A stretch of DNA of 32,000 nucleotides from Myxococcales bacterium (GTDB lineage Bacteria > Myxococcota_A > Polyangia > Haliangiales > Haliangiaceae). Made by a program: the position numbers and the translations under genes. Numbering within the stretch: the stretch's first letter is position 1; every line of letters starts with the position of its first letter. Positions 13,199-29,008 of this stretch are shown here, piece by piece. The notes beneath the pieces were generated by a model. The model had not been told where the DNA came from and ran no database searches. It saw only the letters and a list, made by a program, of their open reading frames with translations. The stretch lies in contig JADJJK010000032.1 in the NCBI GenBank assembly GCA_016706545.1, positions 3,117 through 35,116 of the forward strand, given 5' to 3'.

Positions 13199-13223
13199 AA
13201 ATAGGACACTTTCGGTCCTATTT
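13199..13223. promoter_or_regulatory. Perfect 9-bp inverted repeat (AAATAGGAC-N7-GTCCTATTT), a candidate operator in the divergent promoter region
   Basis: Arms at 13199-13207 and 13215-13223. It is an AT-rich island in GC-rich DNA, 18 nt upstream of the yafY-like ATG and 53 nt from the divergent gene's ATG. Confidence 0.4.
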
Positions 13224-13240
13224 CGATCTACCCTCGGCGC

Positions 13241-14221
13241 ATGGCCCGGTCGACGCCTCGGATCTTGTCGGCGCTGGAGCTGCTGCAGGCGAGGGAGCGC
13301 ATGACCGGCGCCGAGCTGGCCGCGCAGCTCGGCGTGGACCGGCGGACGGTGCGGCGCTACATGACCGCGCTCGAGGAGCTGGGCGTCCCCATCGGCGCCG
13401 AGCGCGGGCGCGACGGCGCCTACTTCCTGGTCGCCGGCTACAAGGTGCCGCCGATGATGTTCTCCGAGGAGGAGGCGCTGGTGCTGTCGCTGGGCCTCTT
13501 GGCCGCGCGCAGCCTGGGACTCACCTCGGCCAGCGCGGCCACCGCCACCGCACAGGCCAAGCTCGAGCGGGTCATGCCGGCGCGGCTCAAGCGACGCGCG
13601 CGCGCCATCCACGAGACGGTGGCGCTGGAGCCCGCACGCCAGCGGCCCGAGCCGCTGATCGATGGCTCGGTGCTTGAGCACCTGAGCCAGGCGGCGCAGC
13701 AACGGACGCGGGTCCGCGTGCGCTACCAGCCCGCGTCAGGCCAGGGGTCCGAGCGGGAGCTCGATCCATACGGCCTCGGTTTTCGCGGCGGTCGCTGGTA
13801 TGTCGTCGGGTGGTGTCACCAGCGCGCGGCCCTGCGCTCCTTCCGGGTGGACCGGATCCGGCACCTCGAGCCGCTGCAGGCTAGCTTCGAGCGCCCGGCG
13901 GGGTTCGATGTGATGCGGCACCTCACCACGTCCATCGCCAGCCTGCCGCGCGCCCAGACCATCGAGGTGTGGCTGGACACATCGGAGGACGTCGCGCGGC
14001 AGGAGCTGTTCCCGGCCGCGGGCGTGCTGGAGCAGACCGCGGCGGGCCTGGTGCTGCACAGCCAGGCGGACGATCTCGCGTGGTTCGCGCGCGAGCTCGC
14101 GCGCCTGCCGTTCCGCTTCCAGATCCTGCGGCCGGTCGCGCTGACCCGCGCGCTGGTCGCGCACGCGCGCCGGCTCACCGCAGCGCCTCGTCGTCGCGCA
14201 GCCCGCAAGTCCTTGACGTGA
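13241..14221 (+). CDS. YafY-family transcriptional regulator (N-terminal HTH, WYL domain, C-terminal WCX-like)
   Basis: RILSALELLQARERMTGAELAAQLGVDRRTVRRYMTALEELGVPI is the HTH_11/DeoR-type part. ELDPYGLGFRGGRWYVVGWCHQRAALRSFRVDRI is the WYL core. Confidence 0.88.
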   Translation: MARSTPRILSALELLQARERMTGAELAAQLGVDRRTVRRYMTALEELGVPIGAERGRDGAYFLVAGYKVPPMMFSEEEALVLSLGLLAARSLGLTSASAATATAQAKLERVMPARLKRRARAIHETVALEPARQRPEPLIDGSVLEHLSQAAQQRTRVRVRYQPASGQGSERELDPYGLGFRGGRWYVVGWCHQRAALRSFRVDRIRHLEPLQASFERPAGFDVMRHLTTSIASLPRAQTIEVWLDTSEDVARQELFPAAGVLEQTAAGLVLHSQADDLAWFARELARLPFRFQILRPVALTRALVAHARRLTAAPRRRAARKSLT

Positions 14222-14459: not shown

Positions 14460-16059
14460 ATGAAGAACCGTACCAAGCTCACTATCCTTCTCGGGCTGGC
14501 GCTGGGCCAGCCCGCGCTGGCACAGGTGGTGGTCGCTCCGCCGCCGCCCACCAGCGCTCCGTCTGCGCCCGTCGGGCCAACCGTCGCGCCACCCTCGGCT
14601 CCCGCCGCCACCACCGCGATGACCGCGCAAGCTCGCCCCGGCTTCCTCTGGGTGCAGGGGCGCTGGCAGTGGACCAACGGCCAGTACCAGTGGATCGACG
14701 GCCACTGGGAGCGCGAGCGCGCCAACCAGGTGTGGCAGGACGGCTACTGGGAGCTCCGCGGCAACACCTACGTCTGGGTCGAGGGCCGCTGGCAAACTCC
14801 TGGCCGATACCCCACCACCGAGCCGCCGCCGCCGTCTGCCGAGACTCCCGCCGCGAGCCCAGGTCACCGCTGGGTGGCCGGCCGCTGGGACTGGCGTCGA
14901 GGGCGCTGGGTCTGGCTACCCGGCCGCCTCATGCGCGAGCGCCCGGGCTATCGCTTCACCCCAGGCCGCTGGGAGCGACGCGGCGATCGCTACGAGTGGA
15001 TAAGCGAGGTGTGGGAAGAGATCCGCTTCCCGTCCGATCCGCCGCCCCCCTCGCGCCCGGAGAACCCGGGGATGCGCAACGGCTGGGTGTGGGTCGCCGG
15101 CCACTATGAGTGGAAGGCCGGCCAGTACCGCTGGGTCGATGGGCGCTGGGAGCGCGAGCGCACCGGCAAGCGCTGGGTCCCCGGACGCTGGGAGAAGCGC
15201 GGCGATCGCTACGAGTGGATCCCGGAGCTGCTCGCCGATGTCCCGGTCCTGCCCTACCCCAACGAGGCGCCGCCGCCGGTCGTCACCGAGACGCCGGGCG
15301 CCCGCGCCGACTACGTCTGGGTGGCGGGCCGCTGGGACTGGCACCAGGGGCAGTGGCGCTGGATCAAGGGGCGCTGGGAGCGCGAGCGCGTCGGCAAGCG
15401 CTGGCAAGCTGGCCGCTGGGAGCGGCGCGGTGATCGCTACGAGTGGATCCGACACCTGGATCGATGTCCCGGTGGCGCAGTTCCCCACCGAGCCCCCGCC
15501 GCCCAATCGGCCGGAGATCCTGAGCGCTCGGGATAGCTACATCTGGATCCCGGGGCGCTGGGACTGGCGCCAGGGCAAGTACGTCTGGGTCAACGGCCGC
15601 TACGAGCGCGAGCGCGCGGGCAAGCGCCTCCAGATGGGCCGCTGGGAGAAGCGCGGCGACCACTACGAGTGGATCGCGGAGCTCTGGGTGGACGTGGCGC
15701 CCGTGCCGGCGCCCACGCCGATGCCGGCGCCGCCCCCGCCGCCAGCGCCGCGCGCCGAGACGCCGCCGTCCCCGCCGCAGCAGGGTGGCCCGTACCTGTG
15801 GATCCCGGGCAGCTACGAGTGGCGAAACAGCGCCTATGTCTGGGTGGATGGACGCTGGGAGCGTCCGCGCAACAACGAGCGCTGGGTCCCCGGGCACTGG
15901 GAGATGGTCAACAACCAGTGGCAGTGGCTCCCCGGCCAGTGGGAGCGAACGCGCCGCGACCGCGACGGCCGAGGCCGAGGCCGGGACGACGACGACCGCG
16001 GCAGGGGCCGAGGCGGCGACCGCGACGACGACCGCGGCAAGGGCCGCCGCAACGACTGA
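14460..16059 (+). CDS. Secreted WXXGXW-repeat protein with six ~55-aa modules and an Arg/Asp/Gly-rich tail. The reading frame breaks at ~15447-15452.
   Basis: AGGAG lies 7 nt upstream of ATG. Signal peptide: MKNRTKLTILLGLALGQPALAQ. Modules such as WVAGRWDWHQGQWRWIKGRWERERVGKRWQAGRWERRGDRYEWI are separated by Pro-rich linkers. After module 4 the ORF 14460..15536 becomes non-repeat sequence, while ORF 15106..16059 in the next frame continues with ...TWIDVPVAQFPTEPPPP...YIWIPGRWDWRQGKYVWVNGRYERERAGKR..., i.e. modules 5 and 6. Confidence 0.8.
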
Positions 16060-21551: not shown

Positions 21552-21578
21552 GCGCTGGCAGCTCGGCGCTGCTAGCGC
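21552..21578. terminator. Candidate bidirectional terminator hairpin between convergent genes
   Basis: GCGCTGGCAGC-tcggc-GCTGCTAGCGC forms an 11-bp stem with one G-U pair. It starts right after the DUF885 stop and overlaps the solA-like stop codon. Confidence 0.4.
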
Positions 21579-22741
21579 GCCGGGCTCTCGCCAAAGCGCG
21601 CGAGCCGCAGAAAGTCGATCGGCAGCGCGGTCTTGCGCTCGCAAGAGAGGTCTGCCAGGACCTCGCCGATCACGGTGGCGAACTTGAAGCCGTGTCCAGA
21701 GAAGCCAGCCGCCAGGCACACGTGGGGGTGCCGTGGGTGCAGGTCCACGACGAAGTCTTCGTCGGGCGTCATGGTGTAGAGGCAGCGCTTGGCATGCACC
21801 AGGCGCGGCGAGACCTCGGGCAGGTACGCGGAGATCGCCGCGGCGACCGCCTGGGGCACCTGCACCTGCGCACCTGCGTCCTTGGCGCCGTCTGCGTCAG
21901 GGCTGACCTCGGGGCCGGGCGCGTGCTCGCAGATCTTGGCGCCCCACGCGCCCCAGCGCGGAAAGCCGTACACGAAGTGCCCGTCCACATCGAACGCATA
22001 CGCCGGCATGCCACGCTCCGCGGCCATCGCGTCGCCGGCGGAGAACCAGAGCTGATGAACCAGGTGCACGCGCAAAGGCAACGCCAGCTCTGACAGCGCG
22101 GCAGCCGCCCATGGCCCTGCGGTCACCACCAGGCGCGCCGCCAGGAAGCGGCCGTGTTCGGTGGTCACCGCAACGCCGTGCGCGTCGGCGCTCCACGACA
22201 GCACGCGCTCCCCAAAGCGCAGGGTCGCCCCGTGCCGGGTCGCCACCTCGGCGTGCGAGCGGACGCAGCGATCCACCTCCAGAAAGCCGGCGCCCGGCTC
22301 GAACATGCACACCATGTCGTCGGGCAGCGCCAGGGCCGGCCAGCGAGCGCGCACCTGCGCCGCAGACAGCTCCTGCACCGGCACCGCGAGCTGACGGGCG
22401 GTGGCGAGGGCGCGAGCAAACGACGTGCCCGCGCCAGCGTCTTGCGCCGCGTCCGCCGTGGTGCAGAGCGCCAGCCCGCTTCGGTGCAAGAGCGAGGCGC
22501 CGACCTCCTCGCTCAGCTCGTCCCAGAGCTGGTACGCGCGCTCGAGCAGCGGCCCGTAGCGCGGGCTCTCGAAGTACGCCTTGCGGATGAGCCGGGTCTC
22601 GCCGTGCGAGGCGCCGCGGTCGTGGCCCTGCGCAAACTGCTCGAGGCCGAGCACGCGCTGGCCACGGCGCGCCAGGTGCGCCGCAGCCGCGGTGCCCATC
22701 CCACCAAGCCCGAGCACGATGACGTCGTACGAAGCTGTCAT
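21572..22741 (-). CDS. solA: N-methyl-L-tryptophan oxidase / monomeric sarcosine oxidase-type FAD oxidoreductase
   Basis: MTASYDVIVLGLGGMGTAAAAHLARRG is the dinucleotide fold. Also GASHGETRLIRKAYFE, and ...RCLYTMTPDEDFVVD...GFSGHGFKFATVIGEVLADL with a Cys at the position of the covalent-FAD Cys. GGAGG lies 6 nt before ATG 22741. Confidence 0.85.
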   Translation of the reverse strand: MTASYDVIVLGLGGMGTAAAAHLARRGQRVLGLEQFAQGHDRGASHGETRLIRKAYFESPRYGPLLERAYQLWDELSEEVGASLLHRSGLALCTTADAAQDAGAGTSFARALATARQLAVPVQELSAAQVRARWPALALPDDMVCMFEPGAGFLEVDRCVRSHAEVATRHGATLRFGERVLSWSADAHGVAVTTEHGRFLAARLVVTAGPWAAAALSELALPLRVHLVHQLWFSAGDAMAAERGMPAYAFDVDGHFVYGFPRWGAWGAKICEHAPGPEVSPDADGAKDAGAQVQVPQAVAAAISAYLPEVSPRLVHAKRCLYTMTPDEDFVVDLHPRHPHVCLAAGFSGHGFKFATVIGEVLADLSCERKTALPIDFLRLARFGESPAR

Positions 22742-22873
22742 GAGTGCCTCCACTTTCCCCCGCAGGCCCCGGCTTTTGAACCCGCCAGCGAGGCTTTCTC
22801 GCGGCGGTCAGGACCGCGCTTCTGCCGTGGCCATCTCGCGCTTGCCCAGTGTACTCTCCAGAGCCAGACCGAC

Positions 22874-25800
22874 GTGACCTCCGGGACCCTGCCGGCAAGG
22901 CCAACCGATATCGACGAGTTTCGACTGATCCGGATCCTCGGCAGCGGCGGCATGGGCGCGGTGTACCTGGCGCACGACACGATCCTCGATCGCTCGGTGG
23001 CGCTCAAGCTCATGCGCGTGGGCGCCAGCGAGGAGCACCGCCTGCGGTTTCTCACCGAGGCGCGCGCGCTGGCGCGCCTGGATCACCCCAACGTGGTCTC
23101 CATCTTCCGCGCTGGCGTCGCCGCTGGCGGCGAGCCCTACCTGGTGCAGGAGCTGGTGGCCGGCTCGTCAGTGGACCGCGCCACGTTGCCGGTGTCGCCA
23201 CGGCGCGCGCTGGAGCTAGCGCTCGGTATCGCGCGTGGCCTCGCCGCGGCGCACCGCCGTGGCGTGCTCCACCGCGACATCAAGCCCAGCAACATCATGA
23301 TCGACGACACGGGCACGCCGCGGCTGCTCGACTTTGGGCTGGCCAAGCTCACGGGCGCCGCGCCACCGGCGAGCGCCCGCCCCCATCCCCCGGGCCACCG
23401 AGCCGATGTGGACCACCCAGACGATCGCCCCCCGGCGCGCGTCGCCCCGAAGCCAGCGGCCAGCCCGCTCGCCACCACCCTGCAAACGCGCCTGCCACGC
23501 CCAAGCGACGCCGCTCGCCCAGCAGGGTCCACCGACGCCCCGCGCCTGGCGGCCGAGGAGCGCTCGCCACCGACGCCCCCCAGCGCTCCCGACCTCGCCG
23601 TCACCGCCGACCTGCCTGCCGCGCCTGTCGCGCCCCTCGCCGTCACCGCCGACCTGCCGGCCGCGCCTTCCGCGCTCCTCGCCGTCACCGCCGACCTGCC
23701 TGCCGCGCCTTCCGCGCCCCTCGCCGTCACCGCCGACCTGCCGGCCGCGCCTCCGTCGGCTGCTACCGATCGCCTGCTCGCCGATGGACCCGTGCCGCAG
23801 GGCTCCCCTGAGGATCCCACCAGCGCCGGCGCCATCCTCGGCACCCCGCGCTACATGGCGCCCGAGGTGTGGCGCGGTGAGCCCGCGAGCTTGCGCAGTG
23901 ACCTCTACTCGCTGGGCGCGGTGTTCTACGAGCTGCTCACCGGGGAGCCTCCGTATCTGCAGCCGGACCTGGAGTCGCTGCAGCGCGCGGTCCTCGAGGG
24001 CGCGCCAGCGCCGCCGGTCGCGGCGCGCGTGAGCGGCCTCGACGCAGACTTCGCGGAGCTCGTCACGCGATGCCTGGCGCGACAAGCCAGCGATCGCCCG
24101 CAGTCCGCCGACGAGGTCGTGTTCCAGCTAGAGCGCATCGCCGCTGGCGCACCGCCGATCCCCGAGGGCAGCCCATACCGTGGCCTGTCCCCGTTCGAGG
24201 CCGAGCAGCGTGCGCTGTTCTTCGGCCGCGGCCCGGAGATCAGCGCCATCGTCGATCGCCTGCGCGGCGCCTCGCTGGTGGTGGTCACCGGCGACTCCGG
24301 CATCGGCAAGTCCTCGCTGTGCCGCGCTGGCGTGCTCCCCGCGGTGGCCGCTGGCGCGCTCGAGGTCGGCGGCAGCTCGCGACGATGGCAGACCCGCGTG
24401 ATCTCGCCCGGTCCGCGCCCCGCGTCGGCGCTCCTGGCTGCGCTTGGCCTCGCCGAGTCCGCTGAGCCCAGCGCCCAGGCCGATCCCGCCGCGCCCGCCG
24501 CGCCCGCCGCGCCCGCCGCGCCCGCCGCACCGACCGATCCCGCCGCACCCGCTGCACCCGCCACACCCGCCGAGCTCGCCGGCGACGCGCAGCCCCTGGC
24601 CCAGCGGCTCGCGCGGCGCTTCGCCGGAGGCACGACGGGCGTCCTCTGTCTGATCGATCAGGCCGAGGAGCTGGTGACCCAGAGCCAGCCAGCGCAGGCC
24701 GCGCGCGCCGGCGACCTGCTCGCCAGCATCGCCGAGGGCATCCCCGGCGTGAAGGTGCTCGTCGCCGTCCGCGGCGACTTCCTGACCCGCGTCGCGGCGC
24801 TGCCGGGCGTGCGCGGCTCGCTGACCGACAGCTTGCACCTGGTGCGCGGCCTCTCTCCTGAAGACGCGCGCGCGGTGGTGGTCGAGCCCGCCCGCGCCAA
24901 GGGGGTTCGCTTCGAGACCGAGGCGATGGTGCAGTCGCTGGTGGACTCCATCCTCGAGAGACCGGCGGCCCTGCCCCTCTTGCAGTTCGCGCTGGCCGAG
25001 CTATGGGGCCACCGCGACATCGAGCGCGCGGTGATCCCGGCGCGCGCGCTCACCGAGATCGGGGGCGTCGCTGGCGCGCTGGCGAGCCACGCTGACCGCG
25101 TGTTGACCGCGCTCGGCGGCCCTGAGCGCATCGCCGCCCGCCGGGTGCTGCTGGCCCTGGTGTCCGGAGAGCGCACGCGCCGGAGCTGCGCGCGCGGCGA
25201 GCTCCTGGGCGGCGGCGACAGCTCCGCTTCGGCCCGCGCGCTCGAGGCCCTGGTGCGCGGCCGGCTGGTCGCGGCGCGCGACGTCGCGGATGGAGATCCG
25301 GTGTACGAGCTGGCACACGAGTCGCTGCTGTCGGCCTGGGGCACCTTGCGCGGCTGGCTCGACGACGCGGCCGGCCAGCGCGGCATCCGCACGCGGCTTG
25401 GCGCGGCCGCCGATGAGTGGCATCGGCTCGGCCGGCGGCGAGAGCTCCTGTGGAAGCGCTCACAGCTCACCGAGACCGCGCAGCTCACCGAGCTGACCCA
25501 AGGGGACCGCGCCTTCCTCGACGCCAGCCGCGCGGCCGCCAGGCGCCGCGTCGCGCTGGCGGTGGCGCTGACCGCGGCCATCCCCGCCGCCGCCGCCTTG
25601 ACCTGGTGGAGCGCGTCGTACCGCGAGCGGGAGCGCCGCGAGCTCCTGGTGGACCAGCGCCGCGCCGACGCCGACGCCGCCATGCAGCGCGCCCACGCCG
25701 CGCTCACCGAGGCCCACGGCCTGCGCGCCGAGGCCACCGCCAGGTTCCGAGGCGCCGCGGCCCCCAAGCTGCGCTCCGACGTCCCCGAGGTCGCGCAGGC

Positions 25801-27190
25801 GCTGTCCCGCCACTATCGGGAGCAGCAGGAGGCGCGCAACCGCCAGTGGAGCCAGGGCGAGCGCCGCTTCGAGGACGCGAGGAACGCCATGCGCGAGGCC
25901 GCGCGCATCCTCGAGAGCGCGCGCGAGCTGGGTGCGCGCAGATCCGAGCTCGCCAGCTCGCTGGCCGACGTGATGATGGAGCAGCTCACGCTGGCCGACT
26001 TCTTCGGCGACGCGGCGGCCATCGAGGATCTCGAGCCACGCCTGGCCACCTACGACGACGGCCGGCGCCTCGCCCGCTGGCGCCAGAGGACCGCGTTGCT
26101 GGTGCGCGCCAGCGGCGCCACCAGCATCGAGCTCCAGCGCTACCAGACTGGCGAGGGCGGGCGGCTCGCCGAGGAGCACGTCGCCCAGGAGGGCGGCGAG
26201 GCGCTGCGCGCCGAGGTGCCGCCTGGCTCGTACCGCGCCCGCGTCACCGCCCCCGGGATCGAGCCGGTGCTCTTGCCCTTCGTGGTCCGGCGCGAGCGCC
26301 CGGTCACCCTCGAGATCCAGCTCCCGCAGCCCGGGCAGGTGCCCCCGGGCTTCGTCTATGTCCCCGCGGGCGCCTTCCTGCGCGGGAGCGAAGACCACCA
26401 GCACCCGGATCTGGCCTGGATCCGACGCAGCTTCTTTGACGCTCCGCCGCGCCACGAGGAGGTCACCGGGCCCTATCTCATCGGCCGCTACGAGGTGACC
26501 TTCGCGGACTGGCTCCGCTACCTGCGCACGCTCGACCCTGCCCGCTTGGCGGCGCGCCGGCAGAGCGGCGACATCACCCAGGCGCGCAGCGTGCGACTCG
26601 ACGGCGACGGCCGCGGCCCCTTCACGTTGACCCTGCGCCCGCTGGGCGAGGCGTTCTCGGCCGTCGAGGGGCAGCCGCTGGTGTTCCCGCGGCGCCAGCT
26701 ACGTCAGCGAGTGCGCTGGGAGCTGACCCCGGCCGCGGGTATCAACCGAGAAGACGCCGAGGCCTTCGCTGCGTGGCTCGACCGCACAGGTCAGGTGCCG
26801 GGCGCGCGGCTGTGTACGCCGCTCGAGTGGGAGCGCGCGGCCCGCGGCGCCGATGGGCGTCGCTTTCCGCACGGCAACGACCTGCGGCCCAGCGACGCCA
26901 ACATCGACGAGACCTACAGCCGAGAGGCGCTGAGCCCCGACGAGGTCGGCGCCCACCCAGCCAGCGTCTCGCCGTTTGGCGTGCATGACCTGGCCGGCAA
27001 CGCCTTCGAGCTGGTGACCAACGGCCCGCACGAGATCGAGATGCGCGGTGGTAGCTGGTGGAACGGCTCGCTGACCGCGACGGCCATGAACGTCACCGCC
27101 ATCCAGCCCTCTCGCCGGGACCCGTACATCGGCGTCCGCCTGTGCGCCAGCGTGTCGCCGCGGCCAAAGGCTCGACGCCGCGCGCCATGA
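22874..27190 (+). CDS. Multidomain transmembrane signalling protein: Ser/Thr kinase, STAND-type P-loop NTPase, TM helix, coiled-coil-like region, FGE-sulfatase-fold (non-catalytic) domain
   Basis: This is the protein-like part of ORF 22154..27190 and starts at GTG 22874. Kinase motifs: GSGGMGAVY, VALK, HRDIKPSN, DFG (23330) and APE. NTPase: PYRGLSPFEAEQRALFFGRG, Walker A GDSGIGKSS (24290-24316), Walker B-like LCLIDQAEEL (24644-24673). TM helix VALAVALTAAIPAAAALTWW (25550-25609). FGE-like domain at 26342-27152: TPLEWERAARG, FGVHDLAGNAFELV, RGGSWWNG, IGVRLCAS. Confidence 0.85.
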   Translation: MTSGTLPARPTDIDEFRLIRILGSGGMGAVYLAHDTILDRSVALKLMRVGASEEHRLRFLTEARALARLDHPNVVSIFRAGVAAGGEPYLVQELVAGSSVDRATLPVSPRRALELALGIARGLAAAHRRGVLHRDIKPSNIMIDDTGTPRLLDFGLAKLTGAAPPASARPHPPGHRADVDHPDDRPPARVAPKPAASPLATTLQTRLPRPSDAARPAGSTDAPRLAAEERSPPTPPSAPDLAVTADLPAAPVAPLAVTADLPAAPSALLAVTADLPAAPSAPLAVTADLPAAPPSAATDRLLADGPVPQGSPEDPTSAGAILGTPRYMAPEVWRGEPASLRSDLYSLGAVFYELLTGEPPYLQPDLESLQRAVLEGAPAPPVAARVSGLDADFAELVTRCLARQASDRPQSADEVVFQLERIAAGAPPIPEGSPYRGLSPFEAEQRALFFGRGPEISAIVDRLRGASLVVVTGDSGIGKSSLCRAGVLPAVAAGALEVGGSSRRWQTRVISPGPRPASALLAALGLAESAEPSAQADPAAPAAPAAPAAPAAPTDPAAPAAPATPAELAGDAQPLAQRLARRFAGGTTGVLCLIDQAEELVTQSQPAQAARAGDLLASIAEGIPGVKVLVAVRGDFLTRVAALPGVRGSLTDSLHLVRGLSPEDARAVVVEPARAKGVRFETEAMVQSLVDSILERPAALPLLQFALAELWGHRDIERAVIPARALTEIGGVAGALASHADRVLTALGGPERIAARRVLLALVSGERTRRSCARGELLGGGDSSASARALEALVRGRLVAARDVADGDPVYELAHESLLSAWGTLRGWLDDAAGQRGIRTRLGAAADEWHRLGRRRELLWKRSQLTETAQLTELTQGDRAFLDASRAAARRRVALAVALTAAIPAAAALTWWSASYRERERRELLVDQRRADADAAMQRAHAALTEAHGLRAEATARFRGAAAPKLRSDVPEVAQALSRHYREQQEARNRQWSQGERRFEDARNAMREAARILESARELGARRSELASSLADVMMEQLTLADFFGDAAAIEDLEPRLATYDDGRRLARWRQRTALLVRASGATSIELQRYQTGEGGRLAEEHVAQEGGEALRAEVPPGSYRARVTAPGIEPVLLPFVVRRERPVTLEIQLPQPGQVPPGFVYVPAGAFLRGSEDHQHPDLAWIRRSFFDAPPRHEEVTGPYLIGRYEVTFADWLRYLRTLDPARLAARRQSGDITQARSVRLDGDGRGPFTLTLRPLGEAFSAVEGQPLVFPRRQLRQRVRWELTPAAGINREDAEAFAAWLDRTGQVPGARLCTPLEWERAARGADGRRFPHGNDLRPSDANIDETYSREALSPDEVGAHPASVSPFGVHDLAGNAFELVTNGPHEIEMRGGSWWNGSLTATAMNVTAIQPSRRDPYIGVRLCASVSPRPKARRRAP
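23594..23761 (+). repeat. Four in-frame 42-bp tandem repeats (LAVTADLPAAPxAx) inside the kinase activation loop
   Basis: Units at 23594-23635, 23636-23677, 23678-23719 and 23720-23761. They differ at only a few nucleotides. Confidence 0.95.
24488..24532 (+). repeat. In-frame 9-bp microsatellite, (GCCGCGCCC)x4 plus one imperfect unit, encoding (AAP)n
   Basis: Perfect units at 24488, 24497, 24506 and 24515. They sit in the Ala/Pro-rich stretch ADPAAPAAPAAPAAPAAPTDPAAPAAPATPAE between Walker A and Walker B. Confidence 0.9.
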
Positions 27191-27203
27191 GGCGACCTGC
27201 GCG

Positions 27204-28642
27204 CTACAGCGGCGCGATCCAGCCGATGACGTCGCCGGTCTGCGAGGCTGGCCCGTAGCCAAGCCCGGCCATCGTCGCCAGGTCCGCGGTGGTCGAGGTG
27301 AGATCTGAGGTCGTCGGATGGCGATACAACCGCAGCGGCACCATGTTCGGCATCGCCTGCGTGGCGTACACGTACCCCTCGTCCAGGCGCTCGAACTGCG
27401 GCGCCACGAAGCGCGGATCCTGGCTCTTTGCCAGGAAGTGGTCCTGCGTCTGCAGGTTGGTGTAGAGCGAGACCGCCACCAGCGAACTCAGCGGCACACT
27501 CAAGGGTGGGATCCGCAGCAAGATCCCATCCGTCCCCGCGTACTCGTACCCTGGCTGCGGCGGCTTCTCCTGATCGACGTTGTGATAGCCGCGCACCGTG
27601 GTCACCCGATCGACGCCCCCGATCCAGCGCTCCAGGCGAAGCTGGTTGTACTTGCTGGCGAAGAACATCACCGCGCCGTCCTGCGCGATCAGGTCGTCGA
27701 TCGTGGTGTCCGAGCAATCGGGCAAGTTGACCACGCACGTGTTGGTGATGATCGGCCAGCGCAGCTTGCCGATGCACGACGCACGTCGGTGCCCCGGCGG
27801 AAACGCGGTCTCGAAGTAGTAGTCGGTGGTGTTCGGCGGCCACTCGGCGAGCGTGAGCGTCTTGATCTGCGCGCCCGGCCAGACCTGATTGACCCCCACG
27901 TCGTCGAGAAACGAGATCGAGGTCCCCGTCCGGGTGCTGGTCGCGCCGATGGCGCAGTAGTCCGCGGTGACGCCCTGCATGCAGGCCTGATGCGCGCCCC
28001 ACATCGCGCCGGCGCTCGTTAGCCCTGGCGCGTAGCCCCACCGCAGGCACTTCGCCGCTGCCCCGTCCACGCACGCGAGCGTGATGCGGCCCGGCGTCGC
28101 CAGGTGCGCCCCGGTGCGCGAGATGGCGCCCACCAGCGGCACGGCGTCGTCGCAGACGCGCCGGACCGCGCCGCTGGCGTCCTTGACGTCAACCTTGTAG
28201 TGCGTGGTGTTGAGATCTCCCCAGGCGACCGTGAGGATCGCCCAGTAGGTCCCTACCGCGCTGGGCAGGGTCAAGCCGTTGAACGCCGGGGTCGTCCCGG
28301 AGAAGGTGCCGTCGCCGCCGACGGACTTGAGCGACGCGGTCCCCACCACCGATACCTGCTGGGCGAACTTGCCGCGGGTGCCGGTGGTGCGCACGCTGAA
28401 GTACTCCGTCGCGGCGGTGTCCGTGTACGGCGCCGCGTCGAGCAACTCCCCCAGGACGTAGCGCCCGTTGGGCTGCTCCTCGTTGGTGGCGCACGCTGGC
28501 GAGTTGGCCCGAGAGCGACACCTGTGACGCCAGCGACGGAGGTGGCGCAGCGTGATCCTGGCGGCGGCAACACCTCGTCCTCTCCTGCTACGGGGAAACA
28601 ACCAACAGCTCCGATCCCCGCGAATGCCAAGAAGGCGCGCAT
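27204..28642 (-). CDS. Cys-rich secreted lipoprotein with a TADYC motif (ADYC-domain-like, uncharacterised). The reading frame breaks at ~28500-28515.
   Basis: The body is the C-terminal ~430 aa of ORF 27204..28967: ...NSPACATNEEQPNGRYVLGELLD...ITLACVDGAAAKCLRWGYAPG...HQACMQGVTADYCAIG (ADYC at 27954-27965)...NTCVVNLPDCSD... The only credible N-terminus is in another frame: AAAGAGGA-N5-ATG 28642 gives MRAFLAFAGIGAVGCFPVAGEDE..., a lipoprotein signal with AVGC. That frame is visible at the end of ORF 28271..29728. Confidence 0.7.
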
Positions 28643-28700
28643 AAGTCCTCTTTGTTTGGCCACAGCCACGTATATTGCAATACAAGCGCCATCGTAACCT
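28643..28700 (-). promoter_or_regulatory. AT-rich 5' region of the ADYC-like gene with a strong Shine-Dalgarno sequence and a 10-bp palindrome
   Basis: The minus strand reads ...GCTTGTATTGCAATATACGTGGCTGTGGCCAAACAAAGAGGACTTATG. TATTGCAATA (28673-28682) is a perfect palindrome. GC content is locally much lower than the surroundings. Confidence 0.35.
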
Positions 28701-29008
28701 CTCAATTCCTGGTTCTGGCGAGGAGTCGTCCTCCTCTCGTCGCAAGAACGGCATGCCGAAACGGCATCTCCAGGTGCCAGTGGGGGTCCCTGGAAAGGCC
28801 GAGCCCACGAGTTGGCCACTCGCACCCCCTGCGTTCGCTCCGAAACCACGCGCCGCGCATGCGTCCCTCCTCGTTTCCATCCAAGGCCGGCGCGTAGATG
28901 ACGCCCCGGCTGCCATGCTGTAGGGTTGCCGCCGTGCTCGGCCCCGTGTCCTCGATCCGCGCCACAAGGCCGCGATGCCTCGTCGGAGCCCCCGGCCCTG
29001 GGACCCTC

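Follow-up and report, generated by a model that had tools for sequence, protein, structure and literature searches.

A Ser/Thr kinase with an nSTAND1 module and a predicted extracytoplasmic FGE-like domain, and its ADYC lipoprotein neighbour, in Myxococcota

Introduction

STAND/NLR proteins are understood as cytosolic sensors, and the gene described here raises the question of whether such a switch could also serve a sensor on the far side of a membrane. The gene lies in a 32-kb window (the whole stretch of DNA analysed, 32,000 nucleotides of contig JADJJK010000032.1 in Myxococcales bacterium assembly GCA_016706545.1) and codes for a single chain, which we call the receptor, in which a Hanks-type Ser/Thr kinase is followed by an nSTAND1 NTPase module, a predicted transmembrane (TM) helix, a helical stalk, a beta-sandwich, and a domain of the formylglycine-generating enzyme (FGE) fold. 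An earlier inspection of the letters and translations alone (the sequence-only reading) put this protein forward as an undescribed signalling or immunity-like module, and asked whether the gene for an ADYC-type lipoprotein, which converges on it, co-occurs with it elsewhere.

The ADYC gene does co-occur with the receptor gene, and strongly so. The receptor itself is an ordinary member of a large, database-named, and computationally catalogued family whose building plan is already published; what is new here is that an ADYC gene is its constant neighbour and that the STAND insert is optional. We propose, with confidence about evenly balanced by doubt, that the receptor is a periplasm-sensing, single-pass inner-membrane Ser/Thr kinase, paired with a cognate ADYC lipoprotein and activated when its STAND modules cluster.

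Results

An ADYC lipoprotein gene adjoins the receptor gene

The ADYC gene lies directly 3′ of the receptor gene in 16 of the 16 loci that have enough downstream flank, a set that takes in the window and L170, where the receptor lacks the STAND module; adjacency was seen by ORF in L001 and L002, and by tblastn only in L003, L004, L006, L008, and L009. In the window, L081/L082, L083, L087, and L173 the receptor and ADYC genes converge; in L084, L085, L086, L170, and the ORF- and tblastn-defined loci just named they are co-directional. The closest relative of the window (L081/L082, protein P0002) has the same convergent DUF885-DAO-receptor-ADYC order and is syntenic; in L083 (P0003) the ADYC gene is again convergent and the upstream genes are different, and the convergent loci L087 and L173 belong to a Kofleriaceae metagenome-assembled genome (MAG) and to Stigmatella aurantiaca DW4/3-1 (receptor ADO76101.1, CP002271.1 at ~10.20 Mb), respectively. 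Among the co-directional loci, L084 and L085 contain the two Polyangium paralogues, both of which have an ADYC gene of their own, and L086 (Archangium minus CP043494.1, 6001-15876) has two tandem receptor genes, one ADYC gene, and then a gene for a CHAT-domain (caspase-like) protein. Where genes or ORFs were called, the co-directional ADYC gene starts ~15-170 bp past the receptor stop.

In L170, which codes for the STAND-less relative P0204, the ADYC gene is 85 bp downstream, and the pairing therefore tracks the extracytoplasmic module and not the STAND module. In the loci of two further STAND-less relatives (L169 for P0159 and L172 for P0167) the contig ends within a downstream ORF that has a lipoprotein or signal-peptide start resembling the N-terminus of a short ADYC protein. 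Because the 16 of 16 adjacency holds over ~40% sequence divergence, in both orientations, and with unrelated flanks, it argues for selection for adjacency rather than inherited synteny, and the ADYC lipoprotein is probably the partner of the receptor.

The ADYC proteins start with a lipobox or signal peptide (...VATGC in L081, ...LLGGC in L083, ...WAGGC in L084, and ...LGAGC in L001), and they share six invariant Cys residues together with an invariant His, Gln, Asp, and Glu around a ...HQxC..M..ADYCG.G..T..GT.I..D core; word-prefiltered homologue searches returned 15 and 17 proteins. They come in two forms: the short co-directional ones carry N-terminal pentapeptide-type repeats, and the long convergent ones, including that of the window, have an extra C-terminal domain of ~170 aa. 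A profile search against PDB gave matches confined to the pentapeptide-repeat N-termini of the short forms, an NCBIfam search gave nothing for ADYC, and nothing was found in a literature search on the domain. Some distant metagenome ADYC genes (L136, L160, L140, and L120) have other signalling genes nearby, for a TPR-repeat kinase, a kinase of 1131 aa in which no further domain is recognised, or a separate nSTAND1 protein.

In the ADYC gene of the window, the signal peptide (start at 28642) and the mature part are read in different frames, with 4 nt missing at ~28510-28514. Logan contig L168 (SRR34217589), which is 99.26% identical over 26094-28780, has 4 extra nt (3+1) at this position, and these give one intact ADYC ORF. 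The frameshift is either an indel error in the assembly or a real pseudogene; a second apparent frameshift in the window, in a gene for a WXXGXW-repeat protein, makes assembly error a live explanation. GC content is 0.67-0.69 across the ADYC gene (27001-29000) and 0.74-0.77 across the receptor gene.

A kinase and an nSTAND1 module in one open reading frame

The receptor frame is open from 22154 to 27190 on the + strand, and the GTG at 22874 is the sole in-frame ATG, GTG, or TTG between the start of the divergent DAO oxidoreductase gene (22753) and the kinase G-loop. GC content at third codon positions (GC3) is 0.88, which is typical of coding sequence in a window of ~72% GC. The sequence-only reading had allowed that several genes might have been merged here by a sequencing artefact, and the two apparent frameshifts elsewhere in the window (in the ADYC and WXXGXW-repeat genes) do mean that indel errors are possible in this assembly. 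The domain set and order are nevertheless kept in at least 120 independent full-length homologues of 1117-1588 aa, which effectively refutes a merger, and contig L168, which covers the final 1.1 kb of the ORF, differs by substitutions only. We reject the artefact, to which we attach next to no credence, and take the ORF to be genuine.

The sequence-only reading had described a Hanks-type kinase with every catalytic motif intact and, C-terminal to it, a STAND-type NTPase with its lead-in, Walker A, and DQxEE-type Walker B. Both domains are there, and each of the motifs lies where that reading had put it (Table 1). The Pkinase match scores 142 bits against a gathering cutoff of 31.7, and the catalytic set is complete: GSGGMG, K45, E62, H133-R134-D135, D153-F154-G155, and A329-P330-E331. 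In an alignment of the receptor with its 120 best homologues (n=121, the basis of all conservation counts given here), K45, D135, and D153 are conserved in 119-120 members.

One correction concerns the layout of the kinase, which is matched in two stretches, the first covering aa 17-161; it is split by an insert of ~160 aa in the activation segment, between the DFG (aa 153-155) and GTPRYMAPE (aa 323-331) motifs. The insert contains 41 Ala, 35 Pro, and 22 Ser/Thr, and includes an in-frame 42-nt tandem repeat (3.8 copies, 94% matches by Tandem Repeats Finder) at 23593-23752 that encodes LAVTADLPAAPSAP. Inserts at this position are usual across the family and variable in length: the alignment columns of this one have an occupancy of 0.26-0.45, and the family median DFG-to-APE distance is roughly 80 aa, by a regular-expression estimate that under-counts (155 for the window protein, where the true value is 173).

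The match to nSTAND1 (PF20703) is full length, covering profile positions 1-378 of 379 with 305 bits against a gathering cutoff of 27.1, and it fills the region between the kinase and the TM helix. K479 of Walker A, D595, E598, and E599 of Walker B, R633, and H815 are each conserved in 121 of 121 family members. AVRGDF (with R633), LPLLQFAL, and YELAHESL (with H815) occur in the order expected of STAND hallmarks, with roles assigned by analogy: by likeness to other STAND proteins, Arg633 is a candidate sensor-1 arginine, LPLLQFAL is a candidate for the LPL/GxP-type motif of the helical domain, and His815 is a candidate for the winged-helix, MHD-like histidine that would hold ADP in the off state. 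No relative of the region was found in PDB by sequence. A (PAA)n run, built from 10.8 copies of a 9-nt repeat, lies between Walker A and Walker B and has a column occupancy of 0.14 in the family; it puts the two motifs 114 aa apart, against a family median of 74. This run and the 23593-23752 repeat are lineage-specific loop expansions. As the catalytic residues of the kinase and the STAND module are kept in 119-121 of 121 members, both modules appear to be under selection as active enzymes.

A predicted membrane helix and an FGE-like ectodomain

The sequence-only reading placed one TM helix in the chain, with the kinase and STAND module inside and the FGE-like domain outside the cytoplasm, and our analysis agrees on both points. 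The TM segment, VALAVALTAAIPAAAALTWW, is the most hydrophobic 19-mer of the receptor (Kyte-Doolittle 1.93), and in 115 of the 121 proteins of the family the aligned segment likewise ranks first for hydrophobicity among the 19-mers, with an RRR(R) cluster before the helix and a Pro at its centre; the 15-aa flanks carry a net charge of +3 on the N-terminal side and 0 on the C-terminal side. AlphaFold2 (AF2), given 62 family sequences, modelled aa 880-1438 with a pLDDT of 93.9 and a pTM of 0.89; in the model, one continuous helix spans aa 881-961 and would run through the membrane.

Several indirect lines agree on the predicted topology. The Arg cluster and charge bias on the N-terminal side, and the conserved position of the helix, would place the kinase and STAND module in the cytoplasm, where ATP-using domains must be; two near-invariant ectodomain Cys residues would suit a disulfide outside the cytoplasm, and the conserved neighbouring gene encodes a secreted lipoprotein, both of which fit an extracytoplasmic FGE-like domain. 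The same nSTAND1+TM arrangement is annotated by Kaur et al. (2021).

About 240 aa of charged, helical sequence had been proposed to follow the TM segment, and this holds in part: counted from the TM segment, ~190 aa are helical, and a 75-aa beta-sandwich follows. The helices (aa 881-961, 971-1018, 1023-1043, 1047-1060, and 1064-1069) have pLDDT mostly >90, and no Pfam family matches the stalk (aa 913 to ~1070). The beta-sandwich, Ig-like in the model, has a weak Pfam match to CarboxypepD_reg (aa 1103-1150, E=0.013), and PEGA (PF08308) matches in some homologues.

The C-terminal domain matches FGE-sulfatase (PF03781) with 78.8 bits against a gathering cutoff of 23.3. Compared with PDB by Foldseek, the ectodomain retrieves FGE-fold proteins only (E from 2.5e-16 to 4e-9): the enzymes CalU17, OvsA, EgtB, and FGE (the last at E of ~1e-12), and ToxD, pFGE, PvdO, PorK, and TvpA, of which pFGE, PvdO, PorK, and TvpA (the target of a diversity-generating retroelement, DGR) are non-catalytic. 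In catalytic FGE, a Cys pair in the loop after GGS (C336 and C341 in the human enzyme) binds Cu(I). Two Cys occur in that loop, after RGGS, in 0 of 121 family members, as the sequence-only reading had noted for the receptor. The receptor ectodomain has exactly two Cys, C1314 (conserved in 120/121) and C1424 (121/121), with none between G1393 and C1424, and a catalytic FGE role is rejected. A role like that of EgtB, OvoA, or OvsA is rejected as well: no DinB-type iron-binding domain, with its His triad, is matched by Pfam in the receptor, and a helical bundle and beta-sandwich precede the FGE fold instead. Because both the Cys pair and the DinB iron domain are absent, the FGE-like domain is best read as a non-catalytic binding module, in line with the earlier suggestion.

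A large family in which nSTAND1 appears optional

At least 120 full-length homologues carry the same Pfam domains in the same order, most of them 1220-1350 aa long and the best 62% identical to the receptor. The ectodomain alone, searched against 1.84 billion cluster representatives (50% identity), retrieved 518 clusters at E<=1e-30, and in each of the best 150 the match takes in the helical region, the Ig-like sandwich, and the FGE fold. All family members of named origin come from Myxococcota: Polyangium aurulentum (two paralogues), Archangium minus, Stigmatella aurantiaca DW4/3-1, Kofleriaceae, and Myxococcales MAGs. A scan of genome contigs with the family alignment was dominated by generic kinase matches, with ~10 useful Myxococcota loci among the matches listed.

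Three relatives of ~855-870 aa (P0159, P0167, and P0204) lack the STAND module and keep the kinase-TM-ectodomain order with the same helical, Ig-like, and FGE parts. nSTAND1 thus appears to be an optional insertion in a pre-existing kinase-TM-FGE receptor design.

The claim that the module is undescribed stands only in part. No experimental study of any family member was found in the literature, and to this extent it holds; however, the family goes under the name [quoted passage not shown] at NCBI and "nSTAND1 domain-containing protein" in UniRef, and the plan has been published computationally. Kaur, Iyer, Burroughs, and Aravind (eLife 2021, PMC8195603), who defined nSTAND1, describe STAND NTPase-FGS proteins with N-terminal effectors, S/T/Y kinases included, in which FGS (PF03781) is the sensor. 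In their tables "nSTAND1+TM+sensor" is very common, with 412 string occurrences, and "nSTAND1+CarboxypepD-reg-IG+FGS" is listed, with the CarboxypepD-reg-IG domain before FGS as the beta-sandwich is in the receptor. The exact string Pkinase+nSTAND1+TM+FGS is absent from the tables, and ADYC is never mentioned there.

The genomic neighbourhood

The other neighbours of the receptor in the window are genes for DUF885, DAO oxidoreductase, RluA-like pseudouridine synthase, P-type ATPase, ADH, WYL regulator, and RibF proteins, and the receptor promoter presumably lies in the divergent intergenic region between the DAO and receptor genes (Table 1). Outside the window, the receptor gene is directly preceded in L087 (4319-6004) and L173 (3340-4911) by a gene for a sigma-54 enhancer-binding protein that has an FHA or GAF input domain, and in L172 (1-344) such a gene is 3.6 kb upstream; there is none in the window. 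These neighbours are hints of an output pathway.

WYL-domain regulators are of a type often associated with defence or DNA-damage loci. The one in the window (HTH_11 + WYL + WCX) is ~9 kb upstream of the receptor gene, and no connection between them was seen. The gene for the secreted WXXGXW-repeat protein (PF12779) is broken into two ORFs that overlap in different frames and both carry the same repeats; DNA repeats of ~225 nt underlie the gene (14460-16059).

Table 1. Positions of the receptor, its motifs, and neighbouring features in the window
Feature	Position	Strand	Evidence
Receptor gene (kinase, nSTAND1, TM helix, helical stalk, beta-sandwich, FGE-like domain), 1438 aa plus stop	22874..27190	+	ORF, Pfam, homologues
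Hanks-type Ser/Thr kinase domain, aa 14-420	22913..24133	+	Pkinase PF00069 E=3e-41, two stretches
Kinase G-loop GSGGMG	22940-22963	+
Kinase Lys45 in VALK	22997-23008	+
Kinase HRDIKPSN	23270-23293	+
Kinase DFG	23330-23338	+
Pro/Ala-rich activation-segment insert, ~160 aa, aa 162-320	23357..23833	+	Tandem Repeats Finder, repeat search, column occupancy
Kinase GTPRYMAPE	23840-23866	+
nSTAND1 STAND NTPase module, aa 434-856	24173..25441	+	PF20703 E=1.6e-90
nSTAND1 signature PYRGL..FFGRG, PYRGLSPFEAEQRALFFGRG	24173-24232	+
Walker A GDSGIGKSS	24290-24316	+
(PAA)n low-complexity insert, lineage-specific	24452..24581	+	9-nt repeat, 10.8 copies
Walker B LCLIDQAEEL	24644-24673	+
AVRGDF (Arg633)	24764-24781	+
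LPLLQFAL	24971-24994	+
YELAHESL (His815)	25304-25327	+
Single predicted TM helix, aa 893-912, preceded by RRR	25550..25609	+	Kyte-Doolittle, family position, AF2
Predicted extracytoplasmic helical stalk or bundle, aa 913 to ~1070	25610..26083	+	AF2
Ig-like beta-sandwich, aa 1073-1147	26090..26314	+	AF2 strands at model residues 194-268
FGE-sulfatase-fold (C-type-lectin-like) domain, aa 1158-1423	26345..27142	+	PF03781 E=6.9e-22
ADYC-domain lipoprotein gene, convergent, candidate partner (ADYC domain 27756-28211)	27204..28642	-	PF20032 E=5e-24
ADYC lipoprotein signal peptide, MRAFLAFAGIGAVGC	28598-28642	-	Three-frame translation
Divergent intergenic region, DAO to receptor gene	22754..22873	.	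Gene positions
DAO oxidoreductase gene	21572-22753	-
WYL-domain transcription regulator gene	13205-14221	+
WXXGXW-repeat ORFs	14460-15536 and 15106-16059	+

Discussion

We suggest that the receptor and the ADYC lipoprotein form a two-gene module that reports on the periplasm. The ADYC lipoprotein would be exported and is probably anchored in the outer membrane. The continuous helix of the receptor would cross the inner membrane and carry, on the periplasmic side, the helical bundle, the Ig-like beta-sandwich, and the FGE-fold binding domain, which may read the state of ADYC or a ligand that ADYC presents. Such a change could be relayed through the TM helix to the STAND module, which would swap ADP for ATP and oligomerise; this clustering would gather the N-terminal kinase domains, which might then trans-phosphorylate their long, Ser/Thr-containing activation segments and, after that, downstream targets. 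The sigma-54 enhancer-binding proteins are candidate targets because they adjoin the receptor in some loci.

Several observations weigh against this proposal. If the frameshift in the ADYC gene of the window is real, the receptor would be orphaned here, and among its closest relatives the receptor and ADYC genes converge, which excludes co-transcription. The AF2 model of ADYC (21 sequences) has a mean pLDDT of 67, falling to <50 over the conserved core, and Foldseek found nothing for it in PDB below E=0.5. The TM helix is Ala-rich, with its central Pro, and only moderately hydrophobic, and the existence of STAND-less relatives means that the STAND module is not essential to the receptor-kinase axis. 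ADYC genes also occur in other settings. A metagenome scan, for which the short-type alignment was used since a mixture of long and short forms was too divergent, gave 80 ADYC loci; 12 have a receptor-like STAND or FGE match in their flanks, mostly those with closer ADYC relatives, and one of the 12 (L120) owes its match to a separate nSTAND1 protein and not to this receptor. Six loci flanked on both sides by at least 2.5 kb lacked any STAND, FGE, or kinase match. Ten further loci have a kinase match only, some of them at contig ends and others with different kinases, e.g., with TPR repeats, and the remaining loci have either one long flank without a match or flanks that are too short. The ADYC family thus extends beyond this pairing, and its link to membrane kinases is recurrent without being exclusive.

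The immunity-like role that the sequence-only reading had left room for would make the receptor an anti-invader conflict system of the sort described by Kaur et al. 2021 and Dore et al. 2024, with the FGS/CLec domain as antigen sensor for molecules of phages, predators, or toxins, the STAND module building an apoptosome-like complex, and the kinase as an effector that halts or kills the cell. nSTAND1 was defined within conflict systems, where STAND-FGS proteins with S/T/Y-kinase N-termini are listed (PMC8195603), and a 2026 preprint places STANDs with FGE-sulfatase sensors in defence-associated clades; genomes can hold several receptor paralogues, each with its own ADYC gene, and the Archangium locus L086, with its tandem receptors, ADYC, and CHAT genes, is the sole one seen in which a classic conflict effector adjoins. 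However, the Kaur and Dore papers stress intracellular sensing, whereas the FGE-like domain here is predicted to be extracytoplasmic; in the family alignment its conservation also equals that of the kinase and STAND parts, and it is not hypervariable. A DGR is rejected as an explanation: the 32-kb window has no variable repeat/template repeat (VR/TR) pair, its segment 26345-27190 is not matched by any repeat partner, the FGE region takes part in no long, diverged direct repeat, and the scanned ORFs include no reverse transcriptase. Nor are there defence genes or EAD-linked effector genes beside the receptor in the window; it sits among housekeeping genes, in an arrangement that is syntenic in the closest relative, and not in a defence island. 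The PADLOC matches of the receptor come from the kinase domain only, and among the best 25 of the 34 PADLOC families matched there is no non-kinase defence model. The conserved FGE domain, the lack of a DGR, the syntenic housekeeping neighbourhood, and the sigma-54 enhancer-binding proteins of some related loci together favour ordinary signalling over immunity, and we regard the immune role as rather unlikely.

Two other explanations concern the ectodomain and the ADYC neighbour. PASTA kinases sense muropeptides, and the receptor could likewise use its lectin-like domain to sense a periplasmic or cell-wall glycan unrelated to ADYC, which would then be a passenger whose adjacency is without functional meaning. 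That the genes are convergent in the window clade, that many ADYC genes have no receptor nearby, and that the ADYC gene of the window is frameshifted beside an intact receptor ORF would all fit; but adjacency in 16 of 16 loci that differ this much in sequence, and also in gene orientation, upstream genes, and cytoplasmic architecture, is difficult to account for unless selection maintains it, and we think a passenger very unlikely. It is also conceivable that the ectodomain is an enzyme acting on Cys, for example of ADYC, with the kinase and STAND module reporting or regulating the reaction. The FGE superfamily does act on Cys or thiol substrates, FGE, EgtB, and OvsA are among the top structural matches, and the neighbouring ADYC protein has an invariant Cys in the ADYC motif itself, one of its six; against this, the family-wide absence of the Cu-binding Cys pair, the missing DinB-type iron domain of EgtB and OvsA, and the about equally good Foldseek matches to the non-catalytic folds pFGE, PorK, and TvpA leave an enzyme highly improbable.

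If the proposed periplasm-sensing kinase is right, the position of the STAND switch between the kinase and the TM helix, with the sensor outside, would mean that NLR-type oligomerisation can be driven across a membrane. The constant ADYC neighbour is a testable candidate ligand or co-receptor and a first functional handle on the uncharacterised family PF20032, and the STAND-less relatives, with the same ectodomain and candidate partner, are a natural comparison for what the STAND module contributes; together, the neighbour and the optional STAND module turn a list of domains into a testable two-component receptor hypothesis. A more specific version is that receptor and ADYC form cognate, paralogue-specific pairs that watch the periplasm or outer membrane, with a receptor kinase and an NLR-type STAND combined in one chain, and phosphorylate sigma-54 enhancer-binding proteins. 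Myxobacteria exchange outer-membrane lipoproteins between kin, and such pairs could thus report envelope damage, predation or attack, or non-self lipoproteins; we offer this version as a long shot.

The nearest published systems are the STAND NTPase-FGS proteins of Kaur et al., which share with the receptor nSTAND1 (PF20703), the order of effector, switch, and sensor, the use of kinases as effectors, and the FGS sensor; the receptor has the kinase, nSTAND1, and a C-terminal FGE-sulfatase domain in this order in one protein. Their model differs in stressing intracellular lectin-like sensing and frequent linkage to DGRs, whereas the sensor of the receptor is predicted to be periplasmic and is conserved and DGR-free, the locus lies outside any defence island, and there is a conserved candidate lipoprotein partner. 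Dore et al. (PNAS 2024, PMC10907252) describe DGR-diversified STAND-CLec proteins as putative antigen sensors; these likewise have nSTAND1 or NACHT in the middle of the chain and an FGE-type C-lectin fold at the C-terminus, which in some targets is predicted to be periplasmic, and the receptor is unlike them in its N-terminal kinase, its FGE domain that is not hypervariable, and the lack of a reverse transcriptase among the scanned ORFs and of a template-variable repeat in the window. Receptor Ser/Thr kinases with an extracytoplasmic FGE-sulfatase domain are noted in a preprint atlas of bSTKs (10.1101/2025.01.12.632604). Such kinase-TM-FGE proteins have the same order, and the STAND-less P0159, P0167, and P0204 share the ectodomain and, in at least one case (P0204), the ADYC neighbour; the receptor of the window differs from them by its ~450-aa nSTAND1 module between the kinase and the TM helix.

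Catalytic FGE (SUMF1) and EgtB/OvsA have the same fold as the FGE-like domain (Foldseek E 1e-13 to 1e-10), but the receptor, given the residues and iron domain that it lacks, is not a member of those families. In their logic, the closest parallels to the proposed module are RcsF-IgaA and NlpE-CpxA, which are envelope sensors that depend on outer-membrane lipoproteins: in each case an exported lipoprotein is read in the periplasm by an inner-membrane signalling protein. This is an analogy and not a homology, as the receptor has no sequence or fold kinship with them, and where they use a phosphorelay, the receptor would use a Hanks-type kinase gated by a STAND switch.

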